From a virus (taxonomy: Duplodnaviria > Heunggongvirae > Uroviricota > Caudoviricetes), in the IMG/VR virus record IMGVR_UViG_3300031998_000026, positions 51,528-115,527 of that record: a stretch of DNA of 64,000 bases, one strand, 5' to 3'. Below are positions 2,613 to 52,016 of this stretch, one piece after another. Every line of letters begins with the position of its first letter. Position 1 is the first letter of the stretch. The notes beneath the pieces are model-generated. The model ran no database searches. It saw only the letters and a program-made list of their open reading frames with translations, and was not told the origin of the DNA. The position numbers were made by a program, and so were the translations under genes.

Positions 2613-2686
2613 CGGGACGTAGCTCAATCGGAGAGAGCGTCCGCCTCCTAAGCGGAAGGTTGCGGGATCGTACCCCGCCGTCCCGT
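2613..2686 (+). tRNA. tRNA-Arg (anticodon CCT)
   Basis: Hand-folded cloverleaf: acceptor CGGGACG/CGTCCCG, D arm GCTC/GAGC, anticodon stem TCCGC/GCGGA with loop CTCCTAA, T arm GCGGG-ATCGTAC-CCCGC; CCA not encoded. Confidence 0.7.
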
Positions 2687-10771: not shown

Positions 10772-11186
10772 ACTCGGCGAAGACAGGGCTCAAATCATAC
10801 TCAACGCCATCCACAACGACCCAACGTTCTTCTTGAGTGACGGATGGTGCGAGGACCACAATGTGACCAAGGATGAGTGCGAGACGTTCCTCGAATACGG
10901 ACTGCGTCTCGCAAAGATGTACGACTGGCGCGCGGTCAACAGCGAGGTCGGGTCTGTCGAGGTGGGCCTGACGTTCACCAGCCACAGCGGCAAGGTCGGC
11001 TCCGAGGAGGAGAAGTGGACGGTGTTCGCCCCCCAGACGGACACGGCGAGGATAATGCGCGTCGCGGAGACGGGCAGGGTCACCGCGGTACTCACCCCCG
11101 AGCAGATGCCGCTGCCGCTCGACGAGGGCATGGGCGTCTTCGACATAGAGACGGGCGAGGTAATAAGTCAGTCACCCCACGCCTAA
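10761..11186 (+). CDS. Hypothetical protein whose C-terminal 8 codons lie inside the inserted mini-element
   Basis: ORF ends ...EVI|SQSPHA*; the last 8 codons fall within the left end of the omega-RNA-like element. Confidence 0.45.
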   Translation: MQGRLGEDRAQIILNAIHNDPTFFLSDGWCEDHNVTKDECETFLEYGLRLAKMYDWRAVNSEVGSVEVGLTFTSHSGKVGSEEEKWTVFAPQTDTARIMRVAETGRVTAVLTPEQMPLPLDEGMGVFDIETGEVISQSPHA

Positions 11187-11490
11187 ATGCGGGGGCTTGA
11201 AAGCCCTGACTGACTAGCCTGAGCGCCTCGGGCGCTACGTTGCCGACGAATGCATAGGCACCCTGGGATGTCCGCCCTAGTCCCAGGCACTGCGGCAGGT
11301 GGTTAAAGGCTCCGAGGGGTAGGAGCGGTGCCGCCTGCGGGAAACCGTCGGACAACATTGGCGAAGGGCAACTTACGGTTCGGCGCATACCGGCTTACAG
11401 CATAAAATGCGCCACTTCGTCAATATTGTGCAGCATCCTAGTAGAGAGGAGAGGTGCGGCTCCTCCCCATGCCTAAAGGCAGGGGTTCCC
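11167..11490 (+). mobile_element. Non-autonomous omega-RNA-only derivative of the IscB element (iscB deleted)
   Basis: Left end AGTCAGTCACCCCACGCCTAAATGCGGGGGCTTG, internal GGACAACATTGGCGA, and right-end hairpin CCTCCCCATGCCTAAAGGCAGGGG are all shared with the IscB element at 25414-26955; no ORF between the ends. Confidence 0.6.
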
Positions 11491-11503: not shown

Positions 11504-11875
11504 ATGATGGATAGCGGCTTCGAGCCCGAGTTCACGGGCCAGCACTTCGCGTGGGAGCTCGACCAGCTCAACGACCAGCTCGACGAGTCGATAGGTGCGT
11601 TGAGGATTGCGGGGTCGAAGAAGGCCGAGACCGAGAGGGACTACAGGGTCGCGCTCGCCAAGAAGATAATCGCTCTCAGGGCGCTGGGCACGCCCGTCAC
11701 GATCGTCAACGACCTCGCGAGGGGCGACGAGGAGGTCGCGACGCTGAGGCTCAAGAGGGACGTGGCGGAGTCCGAGTACTGGACCTCGCAGGAGGTAATA
11801 AACGTGGGCAAGCTCCGCGTGCGGACGGTCAACGACCAGATAGCGCGCGAGTGGGGCAGGCCAAGCAACATGTAG
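11504..11875 (+). CDS. Hypothetical protein
   Basis: 123 aa ORF immediately after the mini-element. Confidence 0.45.
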   Translation: MMDSGFEPEFTGQHFAWELDQLNDQLDESIGALRIAGSKKAETERDYRVALAKKIIALRALGTPVTIVNDLARGDEEVATLRLKRDVAESEYWTSQEVINVGKLRVRTVNDQIAREWGRPSNM

Positions 11876-25239: not shown

Positions 25240-25463
25240 GCACAGGCTTAATCGTTGCGGTCGTGACGCTTGTCATCGTGGCCGCGATATACATGGCCTA
25301 TACGATGGGCGAGATATCGGAGATGCGCCGAGCATTGGAGCGTATCGAGCGCAGGCAGAAGCTGAGCGACATACCCACGGAAAGGCGGCCAGACATAGAG
25401 GTGCTGCCGTATGAGTCAGTCACCCCACGCATAAATGCGGGGGCTTGCAATAGCCCCGACTGA
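25236..25463 (+). CDS. Small membrane protein with C-terminus replaced by the IscB-element insertion
   Basis: TM helix LIVAVVTLVIVAAIYMAY; the ORF reads into the element left end at ...EVLPYE|SVTPRINAG. Confidence 0.4.
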   Translation: MSTGLIVAVVTLVIVAAIYMAYTMGEISEMRRALERIERRQKLSDIPTERRPDIEVLPYESVTPRINAGACNSPD

Positions 25464-25647
25464 CCAGCCTGAGTGCTTCGGGCACTACGTTGTCCGCGTC
25501 ATGGCACCCCGAGATGCCTCCTCAGTCTCGGGCTCTGCCGCCCGTCATTAAACAGCCCGCAGGGGTGTGGGCAGTGTGGCGGGCACGACAAGCGCGGACA
25601 ACATTGGCGAGAGGAACATTACCGCCCTTCTGGGCGAGGAGGTATTT

Positions 25648-25650
<3 letters not shown>
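25414..25650 (+). ncRNA. IscB omega-RNA scaffold; the guide would be the roughly 16 nt 5' of the left end
   Basis: About 235 nt structured non-coding stretch directly upstream of and overlapping the iscB start, conserved in the iscB-less copy at 11167-11400. Confidence 0.55.
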
Positions 25651-26955
<1,305 letters not shown>

Positions 26956-43946: not shown

Positions 43947-44019
43947 GGGGATGTAGCTCAGTTGGAAGAGCGCCGGACTGTCTCTCCGGAGGTCGTGGGA
44001 TCGAGGCCCATCATCCTCG
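43947..44019 (+). tRNA. tRNA-Asp (GTC); CCA encoded at 44020-44022
   Basis: Hand-folded: acceptor GGGGATG/CATCCTC, D arm GCTC/GAGC, anticodon stem CCGGA/TCCGG with loop CTGTCTC, T arm GTGGG/CCCAT. Confidence 0.6.
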
Positions 44020-44023
44020 CCAT

Positions 44024-44097
44024 TGGGGCGTAGCTCAGTCGGTATGAGCAGGGGCCTGTTAAGCCTCGTGTCGCTGGTTCGATCCCAGCCGTCCCAG
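44024..44097 (+). tRNA. tRNA-Asn (GTT); CCA encoded
   Basis: Acceptor TGGGGCG/CGTCCCA, anticodon loop CTGTTAA, T arm GCTGG-TTCGATC-CCAGC. Confidence 0.65.
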
Positions 44098-44101
44098 CCA
44101 T

Positions 44102-44173
44102 CGCGGAGTACAGTAGCGGTCACTGGCCGGATTCATGCTCCGGTGCACGTGGGTTCGAATCCCACCTCCGCCA
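44102..44173 (+). tRNA. tRNA-Met (CAT), elongator-type; CCA encoded
   Basis: Anticodon stem CCGGA/TCCGG with loop TTCATGC; T arm GTGGG-TTCGAAT-CCCAC; no GGG/CCC initiator stem signature. Confidence 0.6.
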
Positions 44174-44264
44174 CCAGACACATCCCGCCCCCTGAGGCGG
44201 TGGCCGTTGCGCGGGCCGGAAATCAGCGCCCTCTTGCGGAGTCAGGGGAACCCGCATGCACAAT

Positions 44265-44337
44265 GGGTCGTTAGCTCAGCTGGGAGAGCAGTTGGCTCTT
44301 AACCATCAGGTCCTGGGTTCGAGTCCCAGACGACCCA
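44265..44337 (+). tRNA. tRNA-Lys (CTT); CCA encoded
   Basis: Acceptor GGGTCGT/ACGACCC, anticodon loop CTCTTAA, T arm CTGGG-TTCGAGT-CCCAG. Confidence 0.65.
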
Positions 44338-44341
44338 CCAT

Positions 44342-44413
44342 ACTCCGTTAGCTCATCGGGTAGAGCAGTGGGCTTTTAACCCTCAGAGCAGAGTTCGAGC
44401 CTCTGGCGGAGTA
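44342..44413 (+). tRNA. tRNA-Lys (TTT); CCA encoded
   Basis: Acceptor ACTCCGT/GCGGAGT, anticodon loop CTTTTAA, T arm CAGAG-TTCGAGC-CTCTG. Confidence 0.65.
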
Positions 44414-44424
44414 CCAGGCAATAC

Positions 44425-44498
44425 GGAGTCCGTAGCACAACGGTTTAGTGCGCTGGGTTGTGGCCCCGGATACGAAGGTTCGACTCCTTTCGGACTCC
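44425..44498 (+). tRNA. tRNA-His (GTG) with G-1
   Basis: G-1 opposite C73, acceptor GAGTCCG/CGGACTC, anticodon loop TTGTGGC, T arm GAAGG-TTCGACT-CCTTT. Confidence 0.6.
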
Positions 44499-44505
44499 CA
44501 TCCAT

Positions 44506-44579
44506 TTCCCCGTAGTTCAATCCGGCAGAACGCCTGACTCTGGTTCAGGAGGTACCTTGTTCGACTCAAGGCGGGGAAG
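44506..44579 (+). tRNA. tRNA-Gln (CTG); CCA encoded
   Basis: Acceptor TTCCCCG/CGGGGAA, anticodon stem CCTGA/TCAGG with loop CTCTGGT, T arm CCTTG-TTCGACT-CAAGG. Confidence 0.65.
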
Positions 44580-44768
44580 CCAGAGAAATACCGCGCGATC
44601 GCACTAGTACCTGTCCGGAGGGGAAACTGCGACTGGGGCCAGCCACACTCTGAGCTCGCGCGTCCATACAGGAGGTCGTAGTAAAGGTGAATACGACGCG
44701 TTGCAACAGGGGGGACGCTTCCGCAACACGTAGATGCAAGGTTCGAGTCCTTGCCCTCCCAACCCAAC

Positions 44769-44840
44769 AGGCTCTTGGTGTCAAAGGAAGCACGCTGGTC
44801 TCCAAAACCAGAGGAGGGGGATCGATACCTCCAGGGCCTG
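44769..44840 (+). tRNA. tRNA-Trp (CCA); CCA encoded
   Basis: Acceptor AGGCTCT/AGGGCCT, anticodon stem CTGGT/ACCAG with loop CTCCAAA, T arm GGGGG-ATCGATA-CCTCC. Confidence 0.55.
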
Positions 44841-47257: not shown

Positions 47258-47490
47258 CGGAGAAGGAGCAAGTCGAAAGGTTCCGAAAACAGACCGAGAA
47301 CGGCCTCGTGGCGTGCGCGAAGTGGCTCGAGGACAACGCATGGCTCCTCTCGCACGAGATTGCGGGCGGATGCAGGTCGTGGGCGGTGTCGTTCGAGGCC
47401 GGGGAGGACGGGATCTTCCCCGAGATCAAGATTTCGGTCAACAAGATAGACAAAGGCATCATCGAGGCATACGAAGGTGCCTCTAACTAG
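47254..47490 (+). CDS. Hypothetical protein
   Basis: 78 aa, TTG start. Confidence 0.35.
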   Translation: MTEKEQVERFRKQTENGLVACAKWLEDNAWLLSHEIAGGCRSWAVSFEAGEDGIFPEIKISVNKIDKGIIEAYEGASN

Positions 47491-47527
47491 CGACATAAGG
47501 CCCGAAAAGTCATATCAAACGCAGAAA

Positions 47528-47570
47528 ACGCCCCTCCGCACCCATTCTCGGGTCGCGGAGGGGCGTTTTT
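47528..47570 (+). terminator. Rho-independent terminator ending the plus-strand arm
   Basis: CGCCCCTCCGC-N15-GCGGAGGGGCG followed by TTTTTT. Confidence 0.75.
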
Positions 47571-47602
47571 TCGTATAATTCGAGTCGGGGGAGCGATTTG
47601 CA

Positions 47603-47827
47603 ATGTATCCGGAGACGCTTGCATACAAAAACGGCTCGATAAACGATGACATGTGGCGTCTCTTGGGCAAGGATGGCCGTATCAGCGTCCCAGAGCACGT
47701 GAGAGTGCTCATAAACTATGGTAGGCTGTGCATCATGGTGAAAAACAGCCAAGAGACGGTCATCATGCCCGTTCACAAGCGCGTTTCTTGGGCGTTCATC
47801 GCCGCAATCACGTCCATTAGGGCATAA
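47603..47827 (+). CDS. AbrB/MazE/SpoVT-type swapped-hairpin DNA-binding protein
   Basis: LGKDGRISVPEHVRVLINYG. Confidence 0.45.
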   Translation: MYPETLAYKNGSINDDMWRLLGKDGRISVPEHVRVLINYGRLCIMVKNSQETVIMPVHKRVSWAFIAAITSIRA

Positions 47828-47950
47828 TGACGCAGAAATGCGTGGAATTCGTGCCTAGACCACGAATTTGAGGAACACGTCGTCCAAAATCGGCCACTCG
47901 ACCATCTTCGGACGCTCCAAGGTGCCGATTTTTGCCCTGCCTTTCAAAAC

Positions 47951-49099
47951 TTACGCAAACCTACGCTTGCCGTTTGATTCCTGCTTCGTAGGGCGCTCCA
48001 CCTCGACGGCTTCGACGCCCTCCACAGGCATGAGTTCGGGATAGTTCGCCATCCCTACGTTCAGTATGTTTATCGCCGCGTTCACGTCGCGGTCGATGAC
48101 GGCCCCGCAGTCTGGGCACTCGTAAGTGCGCTCGGAGAGCGGCATGTCGCGTACGCACCCGCAGTTTGAGCACGTCTTACTGCTCGGGTACCAGCGGTCT
48201 ATCCTGCCGACCCTCGCCTTGTACTCGAACTGGCTCGCCATCGTCGCCAACGACGCATCGGCTATCGACTTCGCCAGCTTGTGGTTCGAGCGCATGCCCT
48301 TGACGTTGAGATCCTCCAAGAACACGACGCCGTACCTGCGCACGACGTCCGTCGTGGCCTTGTGGATGTAGTCCGCCCTCATGCATGCCGTGCGATACTG
48401 GAACTTGGCGAGCCTGTCCTTCGCCTTGCGCCAGTTCTTGGAACCCTTCTTCTTGCGCGACAGATCCCGCTGCAGGTGCCTCATACGCCTCTCGCGCCTC
48501 CGATACCAGCGAGGATTCTGGACCACCGTACCGTCCGAGAGCGCCATGAGTACGTGGCAACCGAGGTCGATGCCCACGGCGGCTTGGCTTTCGCCCGCCG
48601 TGTCCGGCACCTCGCACGAGATGGCCGCGAACCACATGTTCGCCCTCTTGGATACGGTCACGTTGTATATCTTGGTGCAGTCTTGGTATCTCAGCGGCTC
48701 TGCCATCTTCAGTGTGAGTCCCTTGGGCAACCTGAGGTACCTGCCTTCCACCCTGACGGCCGAGCCGTCGATGCGGAATGAGTCTCTAACGCCCTTCTTG
48801 TGGAACCTCGGGTGCTTCGTGTTGCCCCTGAAGAACGACTTGAACCCCTTGTCGAGATCCTGTATCGCCGCCTCTCCTATCCACTTGGAGTACTCGTACA
48901 TCCACGGGAACTCCGCCTTCTTGCGGGCGTTGAACTTCTTCTTTATCGAATAGTAGTTGTGTCTGACGCCGTTGTCGTAGTCCTCGTTCCACATGCCGAG
49001 GCAGAGGTTGTATGCCGTCCGAGAGAACCCGCAGCAACCCCTCAGATACGACTCCTGCACGTTGTTGGGATATATTCGCGTCTTGAACGTCCGATTCAT
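47951..49099 (-). CDS. tnpB: TnpB RNA-guided nuclease (RuvC plus Zn finger)
   Basis: N-terminus MNRTFKTRIYPN; RuvC-I AVGIDLG; RuvC-II VVFLEDLNVKGM; Zn finger CSNCGCV...CPDCG; RuvC-III DRDVNAAINI. Confidence 0.85.
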   Translation of the reverse strand: MNRTFKTRIYPNNVQESYLRGCCGFSRTAYNLCLGMWNEDYDNGVRHNYYSIKKKFNARKKAEFPWMYEYSKWIGEAAIQDLDKGFKSFFRGNTKHPRFHKKGVRDSFRIDGSAVRVEGRYLRLPKGLTLKMAEPLRYQDCTKIYNVTVSKRANMWFAAISCEVPDTAGESQAAVGIDLGCHVLMALSDGTVVQNPRWYRRRERRMRHLQRDLSRKKKGSKNWRKAKDRLAKFQYRTACMRADYIHKATTDVVRRYGVVFLEDLNVKGMRSNHKLAKSIADASLATMASQFEYKARVGRIDRWYPSSKTCSNCGCVRDMPLSERTYECPDCGAVIDRDVNAAINILNVGMANYPELMPVEGVEAVEVERPTKQESNGKRRFA

Positions 49100-49326
49100 C
49101 GTTGCTCCTCGAGCAACTCGTCGTCGAGCCTCCATTCTATTGTGTCCCTCACCTTCTCGAGCCTCAGGTATTCGGACACTGGCCTGTCGTACACGAACCG
49201 CACGTCGTAGTCCGAATCCTCGCTCGCAAAGCCCCAGCAGCGGCTCCCGGACTCGATTGCGAGCACCAGGTTGACGTTCTTCTCCCTCTCGACGGACTCG
49301 AGCTCACGGATTATTGTCTCACGCAT
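49096..49326 (-). CDS. Minimal nucleotidyltransferase (MNT-like) fragment
   Basis: LVLAIESGSRCWGFASEDSDYDVRFVY is a Pol-beta-type GS...DxD motif; only 76 aa; stop abuts the tnpB start. Confidence 0.45.
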   Translation of the reverse strand: MRETIIRELESVEREKNVNLVLAIESGSRCWGFASEDSDYDVRFVYDRPVSEYLRLEKVRDTIEWRLDDELLEEQR

Positions 49327-49342
49327 CGAAAATCACCCAAAT

Positions 49343-50257
49343 TCAGTAAAGCTGGCACTCTTTGCCACCTGATCTGTAGTACACACTGACACGGAGCGTC
49401 GTCTCGCCCCACCCGCGGTCGGTTCCGTCGTCAAGGCGCCAAAGGTCCCACATCTCGTCCAATTCGGCGTCGCTGGGGTCGTCCTCGAGGTAGCAGAGCA
49501 CCTCGAACCTCGGCCACGAGCGCAGTCCGTAGTCATGGAGGCCGCACTCGGCCACATACGGCATCCCGGACGCCCTCCTGACCCTCAGGCTCGCCCATCT
49601 GCGCCAGCACTCGTGGGAGAGCCTCCTCTTGGCCCGCCTCACGTGCTCAGATGCCATGTACCGCACCGTCATTGCCGCCGGGTGGTAGTCTATGGGAATC
49701 CAGTCCGTTATCCCCTCGTACGACAGGAACGGGTGCATCCTTACCTGCTCTGCGAGGGCCTGGACGTGCCTTTCCGGTCCAGGACGGATGACCACGCCGT
49801 CAGAGCGCACGAAGGGACCGTCCTCGATCATCCGCATAAGGTCATGCCTTGTGACCTCGACCACGAGGTCGGACGCACTCGGCTTGAACTTGTCTATGGC
49901 CGTGTCGTGCTGGCAGAACAGCTGGATTACCTTCGAGTCGCCGTCTGCGTCGCCTGTGAGGTTCTCTGCGTTGAGCCAGATGCCGAAACGCCACCCCGGC
50001 CACACCCTCGACAGCCTGAAGCTGACCACCGAGCACGGGTAGCCGCCGAACACGAAGTACGTGTCGCCCCTCTGCACGTCCCTCGCCCTGTAGCCCTTGG
50101 CGGCGAGCACGTCGAGCACCCAGTCGCACAGGGCCTCGTTCAGCTCGCCCACGACCCTCAGCCTCTCGTCCGGAACGTCCGCCACCAGGTCGAACGGCAG
50201 TCCCAGTCCCTCTATTACGTCCATTGCGTCCCCCTCTTCACAAATACCATCGTACAA
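49343..50257 (-). CDS. Hypothetical protein
   Basis: 304 aa, upstream of the MNT-like gene. Confidence 0.45.
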   Translation of the reverse strand: MYDGICEEGDAMDVIEGLGLPFDLVADVPDERLRVVGELNEALCDWVLDVLAAKGYRARDVQRGDTYFVFGGYPCSVVSFRLSRVWPGWRFGIWLNAENLTGDADGDSKVIQLFCQHDTAIDKFKPSASDLVVEVTRHDLMRMIEDGPFVRSDGVVIRPGPERHVQALAEQVRMHPFLSYEGITDWIPIDYHPAAMTVRYMASEHVRRAKRRLSHECWRRWASLRVRRASGMPYVAECGLHDYGLRSWPRFEVLCYLEDDPSDAELDEMWDLWRLDDGTDRGWGETTLRVSVYYRSGGKECQLY

Positions 50258-51197: not shown

Positions 51198-51443
51198 CTA
51201 TGGCTTGGCGACTGCGGCGCCTATCGCGTCCACGATGAACTGGCTTCTGCTCTTGCCGGCCTTCTCCGCCATCCTCTTTGCGGCGTCAAGCACCGACCGC
51301 GGCATGTACACCCTCACCGCAACGTCGACGTTTCCATCTCCGATGTCATCGTGGAACGCCTCGTCCCACTCGAACAGGTCATCCATGTCCTCCCCGCTGT
51401 CGAAGCGGGCGTCGAACTCGTCAGCCGTTAAGATGTCGGTCAT
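51198..51443 (-). CDS. brnA: BrnA-type antitoxin (ribbon-helix-helix)
   Basis: DEFDARFDSGEDMDDLFEWDEA ... C-terminal RHH PRSVLDAAKRMAEKAGKSRSQFIVDAI; overlaps brnT. Confidence 0.65.
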   Translation of the reverse strand: MTDILTADEFDARFDSGEDMDDLFEWDEAFHDDIGDGNVDVAVRVYMPRSVLDAAKRMAEKAGKSRSQFIVDAIGAAVAKP

Positions 51444-51729
51444 ATGCGCTCCTCTCTCGATGGTTTGACGGTCTCGCCGATATTATACGCCTGACCTTCT
51501 TGTCAGGCATGGTATGAATCACCGACCAATAGCCGCCGAACGCCCTGCCTATTATCATGTAGCGTCTTAGGTCGCCTTTTGTTTGCTTTGCTGGCACCGT
51601 GACGCTGTTCGGGTCAGACCACACCTGCATTGCGTAGTCGAAGTTTATGCCGTGCAGCTCCTCGTTAATCGCGTCCTTCGCCTCGTCCCACTCGAAGAAC
51701 AGGTCTATCTCCTCCAATCGAATCACCTC
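51421..51729 (-). CDS. brnT: BrnT-type toxin (RelE/ParE-fold ribonuclease, DUF497)
   Basis: FEWDEAKDAINEELHGINFDYAMQVWSD ... RRIISARPSNHRERSAY. Confidence 0.65.
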   Translation of the reverse strand, partial: EVIRLEEIDLFFEWDEAKDAINEELHGINFDYAMQVWSDPNSVTVPAKQTKGDLRRYMIIGRAFGGYWSVIHTMPDKKVRRIISARPSNHRERSAYDRHLNG

Positions 51730-51746
51730 CATCTTGAAGTATACAT

Positions 51747-52016
51747 TTACCGCCTCACCCACATCGTGTCGGTCATGCAAAGCAGCCAGCCGACGTTCGC
51801 CTCGTACAGCATGGCGGCGTCGTATATGAGCTTCGCCTTCAGCGTCCTCGTGCCCTGCTCGTACTTGTAGAGCGACTGCTGCGACATGCCCAGCGCGTCG
51901 GCGGCTTCGGCGATGGTCAAGCCGGCGAACCTGCGCGCCTCAGAGAGCCTCCTTCCCACCTCGGCGTCGTACTCGTCTATCTCGGCCTTGCTTGCGCTGC
52001 CAGCATTGAAGTCCAT
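51747..52016 (-). CDS. XRE-family HTH regulator
   Basis: LSEARRFAGLTIAEAADALGMSQQSLYKYEQG. Confidence 0.6.
   Translation of the reverse strand: MDFNAGSASKAEIDEYDAEVGRRLSEARRFAGLTIAEAADALGMSQQSLYKYEQGTRTLKAKLIYDAAMLYEANVGWLLCMTDTMWVRR

Follow-up and report, generated by a model that had tools for sequence, protein, structure and literature searches.

The DNA analyzed here (the window) is a 64 000-nt stretch of the IMG/VR virus record IMGVR_UViG_3300031998_000026 (Caudoviricetes; positions 51 528 to 115 527 of that record); it is part of a 117.8-kb metagenomic contig, and phage-type replication genes are present. All coordinates below refer to the window. At about 48 to 49 kb, where two convergent gene arms meet, the minus strand carries a tnpB gene that lacks an accompanying transposase gene, a short open reading frame (ORF) directly upstream of it, and downstream a stretch of DNA in which an earlier note, made from the letters of the sequence alone, had placed the guide RNA. 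Here we describe these parts and the insertion sequence from which they probably derive.

The tnpB gene and its product

The minus-strand ORF 47951–49099 encodes a TnpB protein of 382 a.a., with the ATG at 49099 and the stop codon at 47951–47953 (the mechanical ORF list begins the gene further upstream, with an ATG at 49135). The protein has three Pfam domains, HTH_OrfB_IS605, OrfB_IS605 (RuvC) and the zinc ribbon Cas12f1-like_TNB (E-values of 1e-10, 1e-24 and 5e-18, respectively), and all three matches pass the curated cut-offs. It also matches PHROG 506, a large phage 'transposase' PHROG, with an E-value of 3e-109, and its best match among solved structures is the TnpB of ISDra2 (8bf8/8exa; E 2e-51). 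In the alignment with ISDra2 TnpB the D/E/D positions of the RuvC domain are kept (GIDLG, FLEDLN and DRDVNAAINI), as is the CxxC...CxxC zinc finger (CSNCG...CPDCG). No tnpA homolog was found anywhere in the 64-kb window, and the description given in the earlier note, a clear TnpB (RuvC plus zinc finger) without tnpA, is borne out. The ratio of non-synonymous to synonymous substitution rates (dN/dS) of tnpB against its relatives is 0.10–0.22. Judging from its sequence, the protein is an RNA-guided RuvC nuclease of the OMEGA class (for obligate mobile element-guided activity) that looks catalytically intact.

Relatives and the right end of the element

We gathered relatives from viral, metagenome and genome collections using the TnpB as query. 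They comprise eight close relatives (72–88% a.a. identity) and a sister family at ∼58% identity, the latter with many near-identical copies in varied contexts, some of them on contigs with an assignment to Collinsella or Bifidobacterium. In an alignment of the flanks, nucleotide conservation covers the last ∼105 nt of tnpB and its stop codon, and then breaks off after ...GAAAGGCAG. Homology is lost sharply after the GGCAG in the eight close relatives and in ∼19 copies of the 58% family, which corresponds to window position 47937; beyond this position the flank is common to no relative. On the other side of the gene, conservation among the relatives reaches only ∼15–27 nt before the tnpB ATG.

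Most of the close relatives (among L019, L020, L021, L022/L023 and L024) are also transposase-less, and different genes abut their tnpB ATG. Stop and start codons overlap at the tnpB start in two of them (TAATG in L020 and ATGA in L022), relics of tnpA in the close relatives range from ∼0 to 33 codons, and in L021 the right end lies 6 nt before the start codon of a homolog of a 304-a.a. gene that is also present in the window. An independent assembly of the same phage (L012, a Logan contig from SRR9008936) shows no difference over the 1551 nt compared (100% identity) and breaks ∼150 nt into tnpB, perhaps because of a repeat or of heterogeneity in the population at the tnpB locus.

The omega-RNA scaffold

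The conserved segment that ends at 47937 is the predicted scaffold of the guide RNA (omega-RNA, or right-end RNA, reRNA): 122 nt on the minus strand, 48058–47937, coinciding in part with tnpB (its last 35 codons and stop codon), with the 3' end of the scaffold at the right end of the element (the coordinates are those of the conserved segment, and the 5' end is approximate). Across both TnpB families the first 34 of 40 bases are invariant, synonymous sites included, and the synonymous substitution rate (dS) is ∼0.3 where tnpB overlaps the scaffold vs 1.5–1.7 in the remainder of the gene. In the alignment, 97.7% of the cells are paired as the consensus structure predicts. Compensatory changes are found in two 3' helices, with one pair showing GC, CG, AU, UA and UG; the score of the structure was reached by none of 500 shuffles, and sliding the partners against each other abolishes the pairing. 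A covariance model made from 15 relatives, with the window left out, has a single match in the window, at exactly 47937–48058 on the minus strand (125 bits, E 1e-29). Taken together, these comparisons argue that 48058–47937 is a structured RNA and is conserved beyond the requirements of coding sequence alone.

The earlier note had proposed a minus-strand search with reRNA models. The model built from the relatives gives the match just described; Rfam, scanned at its gathering scores and at E ≤ 10, gave no TnpB-type RNA family in 47300–49600, the content of TnpB-associated motifs in that library being unverified. The only Rfam matches in this region are chance ones on a strong GC-rich hairpin at 47514–47587 (AAAACGCCCCTCCGC...GCGGAGGGGCGTTTT), which is flanked by an A-run and a T-run, lies just left of the gene at 47603–47827, and looks like a bidirectional terminator.

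The upstream ORF

The 76-a.a. ORF at 49096–49326 (minus strand) matches the Pfam family RlaP (PF10127) with an E-value of 4e-26, over positions 1–71 of 249 only; a viral RlaP profile is likewise matched at positions 1–71 of 254. Full-length RlaP homologs have 245–277 a.a. (259 a.a. in the related phage L021), so the suggestion in the earlier note that this ORF, described there as a minimal nucleotidyltransferase, is a truncated fragment is supported. Homolog searches with the 76-a.a. fragment returned only short or broken proteins and so give no proof of truncation on their own; as sole query the fragment found no viral relatives, and an alignment used as query did find some. The genomic contexts of three proteins (P0006, P0012 and P0007) share no synteny with the window.

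The two parts of the ORF have different sources. Codons 1–∼70 (49121–49326) are the 5' part of rlaP, a gene for an RNA-repair-associated nucleotidyltransferase of the pol-beta type, and keep the nucleotidyltransferase motif GS...DxD. The remaining stretch (49096–49120), which is in frame with the rlaP fragment, matches the 3' end of a serine-recombinase tnpA of the IS607 type. The closest full relative (L018; its TnpB shares 88% a.a. identity) has, directly upstream of tnpB, a 199-a.a. ORF with a MerR-type helix-turn-helix (HTH) and a Resolvase domain, whose stop codon overlaps the tnpB start; this ORF is an IS607-type serine-recombinase TnpA. It ends in PDDLLGEQR, and the ORF in the window ends in DDELLEEQR (each followed by the stop codon); at the nucleotide level the last 27 nt of the 76-a.a. 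ORF are identical to L018 at 22 of 27 positions. Another relative (L024), which keeps a longer tnpA relic of 33 codons, ends in SDLLGEQQ. Alignments to the rlaP of L223 and to the tnpA of L018 place the junction at 49121 ± 3. The 76-a.a. ORF is thus a chimera, made of RlaP residues 1–70 and the last 7–8 codons of tnpA. Its TGA (49098–49096) overlaps the ATG of tnpB (49099–49097) as ATGA, and does not end 3 nt before it as had been noted earlier.

A probable 3' remnant of rlaP and the predicted guide

Directly beyond the right end a short reading frame (47855–47935, minus strand; AKIGTLERPKMVEWPILDDVFLKFVV followed by a stop codon) resembles the last 26 codons of rlaP. By BLASTP it matches the extreme C-terminus of P0005, the closest RlaP homolog having a C-terminus (EWGELDELFLKLVKD, ending at the stop codon; E 5e-4), and residues 246–257 of the 259-a.a. 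RlaP of L021 (E 0.006). It bears the motif W-x-x-L-[ND]-x-[LV]-F-L, which is C-terminal in the nearest viral RlaP subfamily, it is aligned to positions 226–249 of 251 of the profile of this subfamily, and with the same profile it ranks second among the 1746 six-frame segments of the window, behind the N-terminal fragment only. Some results speak against the assignment: the match is short, the broad viral RlaP profile does not find it significantly (E 79), Pfam does not detect it, and at the DNA level its comparison with the 3' end of the L223 rlaP is no better than with shuffles. The support therefore comes from close-subfamily comparisons only, and because of these failures we grade the remnant as probable, not proven; that the frame after the right end is the 3' end of rlaP seems to us quite probable. 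Of a full-length RlaP domain (∼250 a.a.) the window would then have positions 1–71 and this 26-a.a. C-terminal remnant.

An uninterrupted counterpart of the locus, which the earlier note had suggested looking for, was found in the related phage L021, where a homolog of the 304-a.a. gene is followed by the full-length rlaP of 259 a.a. The 304-a.a. neighbor itself had no relatives among the viral contigs searched, and the phage collection contained no blastn match to the 4-kb region.

Since the scaffold ends at 47937, the guide starts at 47936; its predicted extent is 47917–47936 (minus strand; GGCAAAAATCGGCACCTTGG), the first bases past the conserved right end, with a length (∼16–20 nt) taken from known TnpB systems. 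This sequence occurs once in the window at ≤3 mismatches and has no match in the viral contigs, and it falls in the apparent last 26 codons of rlaP. The earlier note had the guide reading into the gene at 47603–47827, but it stops ∼90 nt short of that gene, whose label there as 'AbrB-like' has no support from Pfam or PHROG.

Origin of the locus

A complete element of this lineage consists of a left end, a serine-recombinase tnpA, a tnpB whose start overlaps the tnpA stop, and a right end that encodes the scaffold. Besides L018, the sampled members of the 58% family (L001, L033, L098 and L099) also carry a serine-recombinase tnpA. The left end of that family is conserved and begins with GGAGCAT after variable flanks, and in 11 of 12 copies the left junction reads NGGAG. 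The left end of L018 does not fix the crossover dinucleotide of the element, and for this reason the target-adjacent motif (TAM) of the subfamily is not fixed either. In the window, tnpB and the scaffold (up to 47937) are both intact, and tnpA is represented by its last 7–8 codons. The left end and ∼190 codons of tnpA are gone: what stands in place of a MerR-HTH plus Resolvase gene upstream of tnpB is a relic of ∼25 nt, and of the two ends of an IS607 element the right one (47937) is present and the left one absent.

It is likely that the locus is the immobilized remnant of an IS607-family insertion sequence within the phage rlaP gene. The fused tnpA tail on one side and the probable end of rlaP after the right end on the other lead us to propose two events, an insertion and then a deletion in which the left end and tnpA were lost. 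An IS607 element would have inserted ∼26 codons before the end of rlaP, and then one deletion of ∼1.1 kb, from rlaP codon ∼71 to tnpA codon ∼192, would have taken rlaP codons ∼71–224, the left end and nearly all of tnpA, fusing the reading frame of rlaP at codon ∼70 with that of the tnpA tail and so producing the 76-a.a. RlaP'-'TnpA fusion ORF. We infer this history, an insertion and a single deletion, as the most economical one. A short microhomology of the GAYGA type is possibly present at the deletion junction. Because the left end and tnpA are lost, the element is unable to transpose. The earlier note had offered two explanations for the short upstream ORF, truncation by the insertion or cargo; truncation stands, cargo does not, and insertion alone is not sufficient either, as a deletion appears to have followed and the tail of tnpA is fused to the fragment.

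Selection, possible homing and alternative explanations

A second metagenomic contig (L155) has the same junction of rlaP', tnpA tail and tnpB, at 93.5% nucleotide identity. Since the shared fusion, tnpB has accumulated 17 synonymous and nine non-synonymous changes between the two (dN/dS 0.12). The rlaP fragment (49096–49326, minus strand, vs 708–938 of L155) has 12 synonymous and seven non-synonymous changes (dN/dS 0.14), a pattern of purifying selection that is unexpected in a 70-a.a. stump of a 250-a.a. enzyme, although the counts are small; recombination with intact rlaP alleles could account for it. The tnpB counts, together with the conservation of the RNA described above, indicate that tnpB and its scaffold are under purifying selection. 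Between the window and L155, dS is 0.20–0.29 for rlaP'-tnpB and 0.92 for the adjacent 304-a.a. gene, and by this measure the module is younger than its surroundings, which is what movement from phage to phage through recombination would produce. L155 has an extra 82-a.a. ORF (436–707) between the 304-a.a. gene and rlaP', where the window has 49327–49342, and it is at this point that divergence steps sharply, from a dS of 0.92 upstream to 0.2–0.3 downstream.

As the stop codon of the fusion ORF overlaps the tnpB start, tnpB probably forms the end of the leftward phage operon and is translated as part of it. Going by what has been published on TnpB (PMC10711439, PMC13565253), the further steps would be as follows. 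A transcript through the 3' end of tnpB would be processed into the omega-RNA, with the flanking rlaP sequence GGCAAAAATCGGCACC... as its guide (∼16–20 nt). TnpB with this RNA would cut DNA that matches the guide and lies beside a proper TAM, that is, an uninterrupted rlaP allele such as a sibling phage infecting the same cell might carry. The phage that carries tnpB would itself escape cutting because the right end (GGCAG) takes the place of the TAM before the guide-matching sequence. Repair from the tnpB-carrying genome would then copy the module (homing), or the cut would merely harm a competitor. G-rich TAMs (AGGAG, GAGGG) and restorative homing have been reported for IS607 TnpBs (PMC13565253, PMC10711439). 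We put forward, as a tentative possibility, that in this phage lineage transposase-less TnpB–omega-RNA modules are kept by selection as RNA-guided devices for intronless homing or for killing competitors, here directed against the rlaP of sibling phages, and that this module spread by double-strand-break repair with rlaP flanks, most of rlaP being deleted.

Several points weigh against this proposal. The TAM-side (left) flank of the TnpB in the window is deleted, and for that reason its TAM cannot be read from the locus; among the viral contigs searched we found no intact rlaP allele with a sequence matching the guide; and the younger age of the module could equally reflect ordinary phage mosaicism rather than nuclease-driven homing. 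That tnpB is always kept in the relatives is partly an ascertainment effect; we rejected it as a sign of selection, because all relatives were retrieved through searches with TnpB. The structural description of the locus is much firmer than either homing or the explanation considered next.

The TnpB–scaffold unit may instead be a dead relic, non-functional but not yet decayed and of no use to the phage or to itself. Transposition is impossible with the left end and tnpA lost, and the window has neither a second copy of the unit nor a target for its guide. Against this, the ORF is intact with all catalytic residues, its changes relative to L155 are mostly synonymous, as given above, and the scaffold scores 125 bits against the model of its family; we regard a dead relic as doubtful.

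The low dN/dS of the rlaP fragment, its preserved GS...DxD motif and the overlap of its stop codon with the tnpB start could also mean that the fragment has a function, as partner or cargo, with selection retaining a minimal nucleotidyltransferase whose translation is coupled to that of TnpB. This is improbable: the fragment covers just 71 of the 249 profile positions, none of the other TnpB relatives is preceded by an RlaP fragment (tnpA or unrelated genes lie immediately ahead of the ATG), and the dN/dS value is derived from 19 changes and is open to the effect of recombination with intact rlaP.

An origin from an IS200/IS605-type element with a Y1 transposase, or from a solo tnpB of the IS1341 type that cut rlaP directly by peel-and-paste insertion, is suggested by the Pfam names of the TnpB domains and by the closest solved structure (ISDra2), both of which come from IS605-type elements. 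We consider it highly improbable. Neither the window nor the relatives tested yielded a Y1 (HUH) tnpA; the only transposase beside the relatives is a serine recombinase, and the tail of its gene is kept in the window. The homology to rlaP runs to ∼22 nt from the tnpB ATG, which leaves no room for the left-end hairpin expected of the subterminal hairpin ends of IS200/IS605 elements, and the left flanks in the sister family are NGGAG, as for IS607, and not T-rich.

In the earlier note the scaffold consisted of two hairpins at 47840–47950, with the guide directed into the convergent gene at 47603–47827. Both inverted repeats exist, and they fold as hairpins in the minimum-energy structure: a perfect 9-bp repeat, AAAATCGGC/GCCGATTTT (47886–47894 and 47924–47932), and an 8-bp hairpin, AATTCGTG/CACGAATT (47846–47853 and 47861–47868). 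They have no part in the scaffold, since the relatives lose homology at 47937, before either hairpin is reached, and both are flanking DNA outside the conserved element; all except the last 14 nt of 47828–47950 lie past the point where every relative diverges. The fold of 47828–47950 is not better than that of shuffles (z -1.16), no Rfam family is found there, and the conserved, covarying scaffold is at 48058–47937, within the 3' end of tnpB. The arrangement proposed in the earlier note is hardly credible. Of the two arms of the 9-bp repeat, the predicted guide contains one and the rlaP remnant the other, 29 nt farther downstream. As RNA, the repeat would tie up part of the guide or fold into a 3' hairpin; it may be due to chance, may be a terminator or processing signal, or may have another origin. 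The 8-bp hairpin, located between the convergent arms, includes the stop codon of the rlaP remnant.

A regulator of the TldR type, a domesticated TnpB derivative that is dead as a nuclease and represses a target gene, is extremely unlikely: the gene is phage-borne and transposase-less like those of TldRs, but neither the loss of RuvC residues nor the C-terminal truncation of TldRs is seen (both the D-E-D triad and the zinc finger are preserved, and 382 a.a. is a normal, full TnpB length), and the guide has no further match in the window.

Other features of the window

The earlier note counted three OMEGA loci in this phage, which is only roughly right. Besides tnpB there is one complete IscB unit, a HEARO RNA at 25415–25622 (plus strand, 175.9 bits) followed by an intact IscB gene at 25648–26952 (plus strand; RRXRR and HNH domains). 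The third locus is a full-length match to HEARO, the IscB omega-RNA, at 11167–11376 (plus strand, 141.9 bits) that is not followed by an IscB ORF; the ORF that comes next on the plus strand (11504–11875) belongs to an unrelated PHROG of unknown function, and the locus looks like an orphan omega-RNA left after the loss of iscB.

Eight tRNA genes are located at 43947–44840 (plus strand), ∼3 kb left of the tnpB locus, and one more at 2613–2686 (plus strand). In the same leftward arm as tnpB, at ∼51421–52016 (minus strand; 3084–3679 of L010), an HTH gene (HTH_3/HTH_31) overlaps a gene of the BrnT toxin family, and the pair is probably a toxin–antitoxin system of the BrnT/BrnA type.

Comparison with known systems

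Both tnpB genes without a transposase and OMEGA nucleases carried by phages are well known, and this locus is an ordinary but well-resolved example of them. The analysis corrects its annotation in three respects, the position of the guide RNA, its target, and the reason for the short upstream ORF, and yields what is likely a clean natural example of an IS607 element that, within a phage gene, was cut down to a core of nuclease and guide. Of interest are that the deletion can be traced, that an in-frame fusion of a host gene with tnpA is coupled to tnpB, and that the guide is apparently aimed at the disrupted gene. If homing or competition is true, the locus would be a tractable case for the current question of whether phages go on harboring OMEGA nucleases, as selfish homing elements, once transposition is lost.

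The locus is most readily compared with IS607 elements (e.g. ISXfa1). As in these, the scaffold lies over the 3' end of tnpB and the right flank supplies the guide. In the closest complete relative a MerR-HTH/Resolvase tnpA overlaps the tnpB start, and insertions of the sister family follow NGGAG, in agreement with the G-rich TAMs that have been described for the TnpBs of IS607 elements (PMC13565253, PMC10711439). Unlike these elements, the copy in the window has no left end and has lost all but ∼25 nt of tnpA, so that it is not transposable; its right end is GGCAG rather than a plain GG terminus, and its scaffold has no match in Rfam at E ≤ 10.

With the TnpB–reRNA system of ISDra2 (IS200/IS605; PDB 8bf8, 8exa and 8h1j) it shares the domain order, the catalytic triad, the zinc finger and the position of the scaffold over the 3' end of tnpB. 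ISDra2 differs in having a Y1 HUH transposase, where the relatives of the window element have a serine recombinase, and in its TAM (TTGAT vs an expected G-rich motif), and the scaffold sequences are not alignable.

Solo tnpB genes (IS1341 type) and IStrons are similar in that tnpB and its guide RNA are intact after the transposase has been lost; retention of TnpB after loss of TnpA has been noted before and read as a sign of homing (PMC13565253). In the window, unlike in these elements, the loss can be traced to what appears to be one deletion, which left an in-frame fusion with a gene of the host phage, and there is no group I intron, as would be expected of an IStron (Rfam scans at gathering score and E ≤ 10).

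Finally, the free-standing homing endonucleases of phages (intronless homing, as with T4 Seg) are also nuclease genes that lie between or within conserved phage genes, with co-inherited flanks, and form modules younger than their neighbors (here, dS of 0.2–0.3 vs 0.92). The difference is that recognition of the target by the TnpB in the window would be by an RNA guide and a TAM, not by the protein, and that homing is for this locus an inferred and tentative function.

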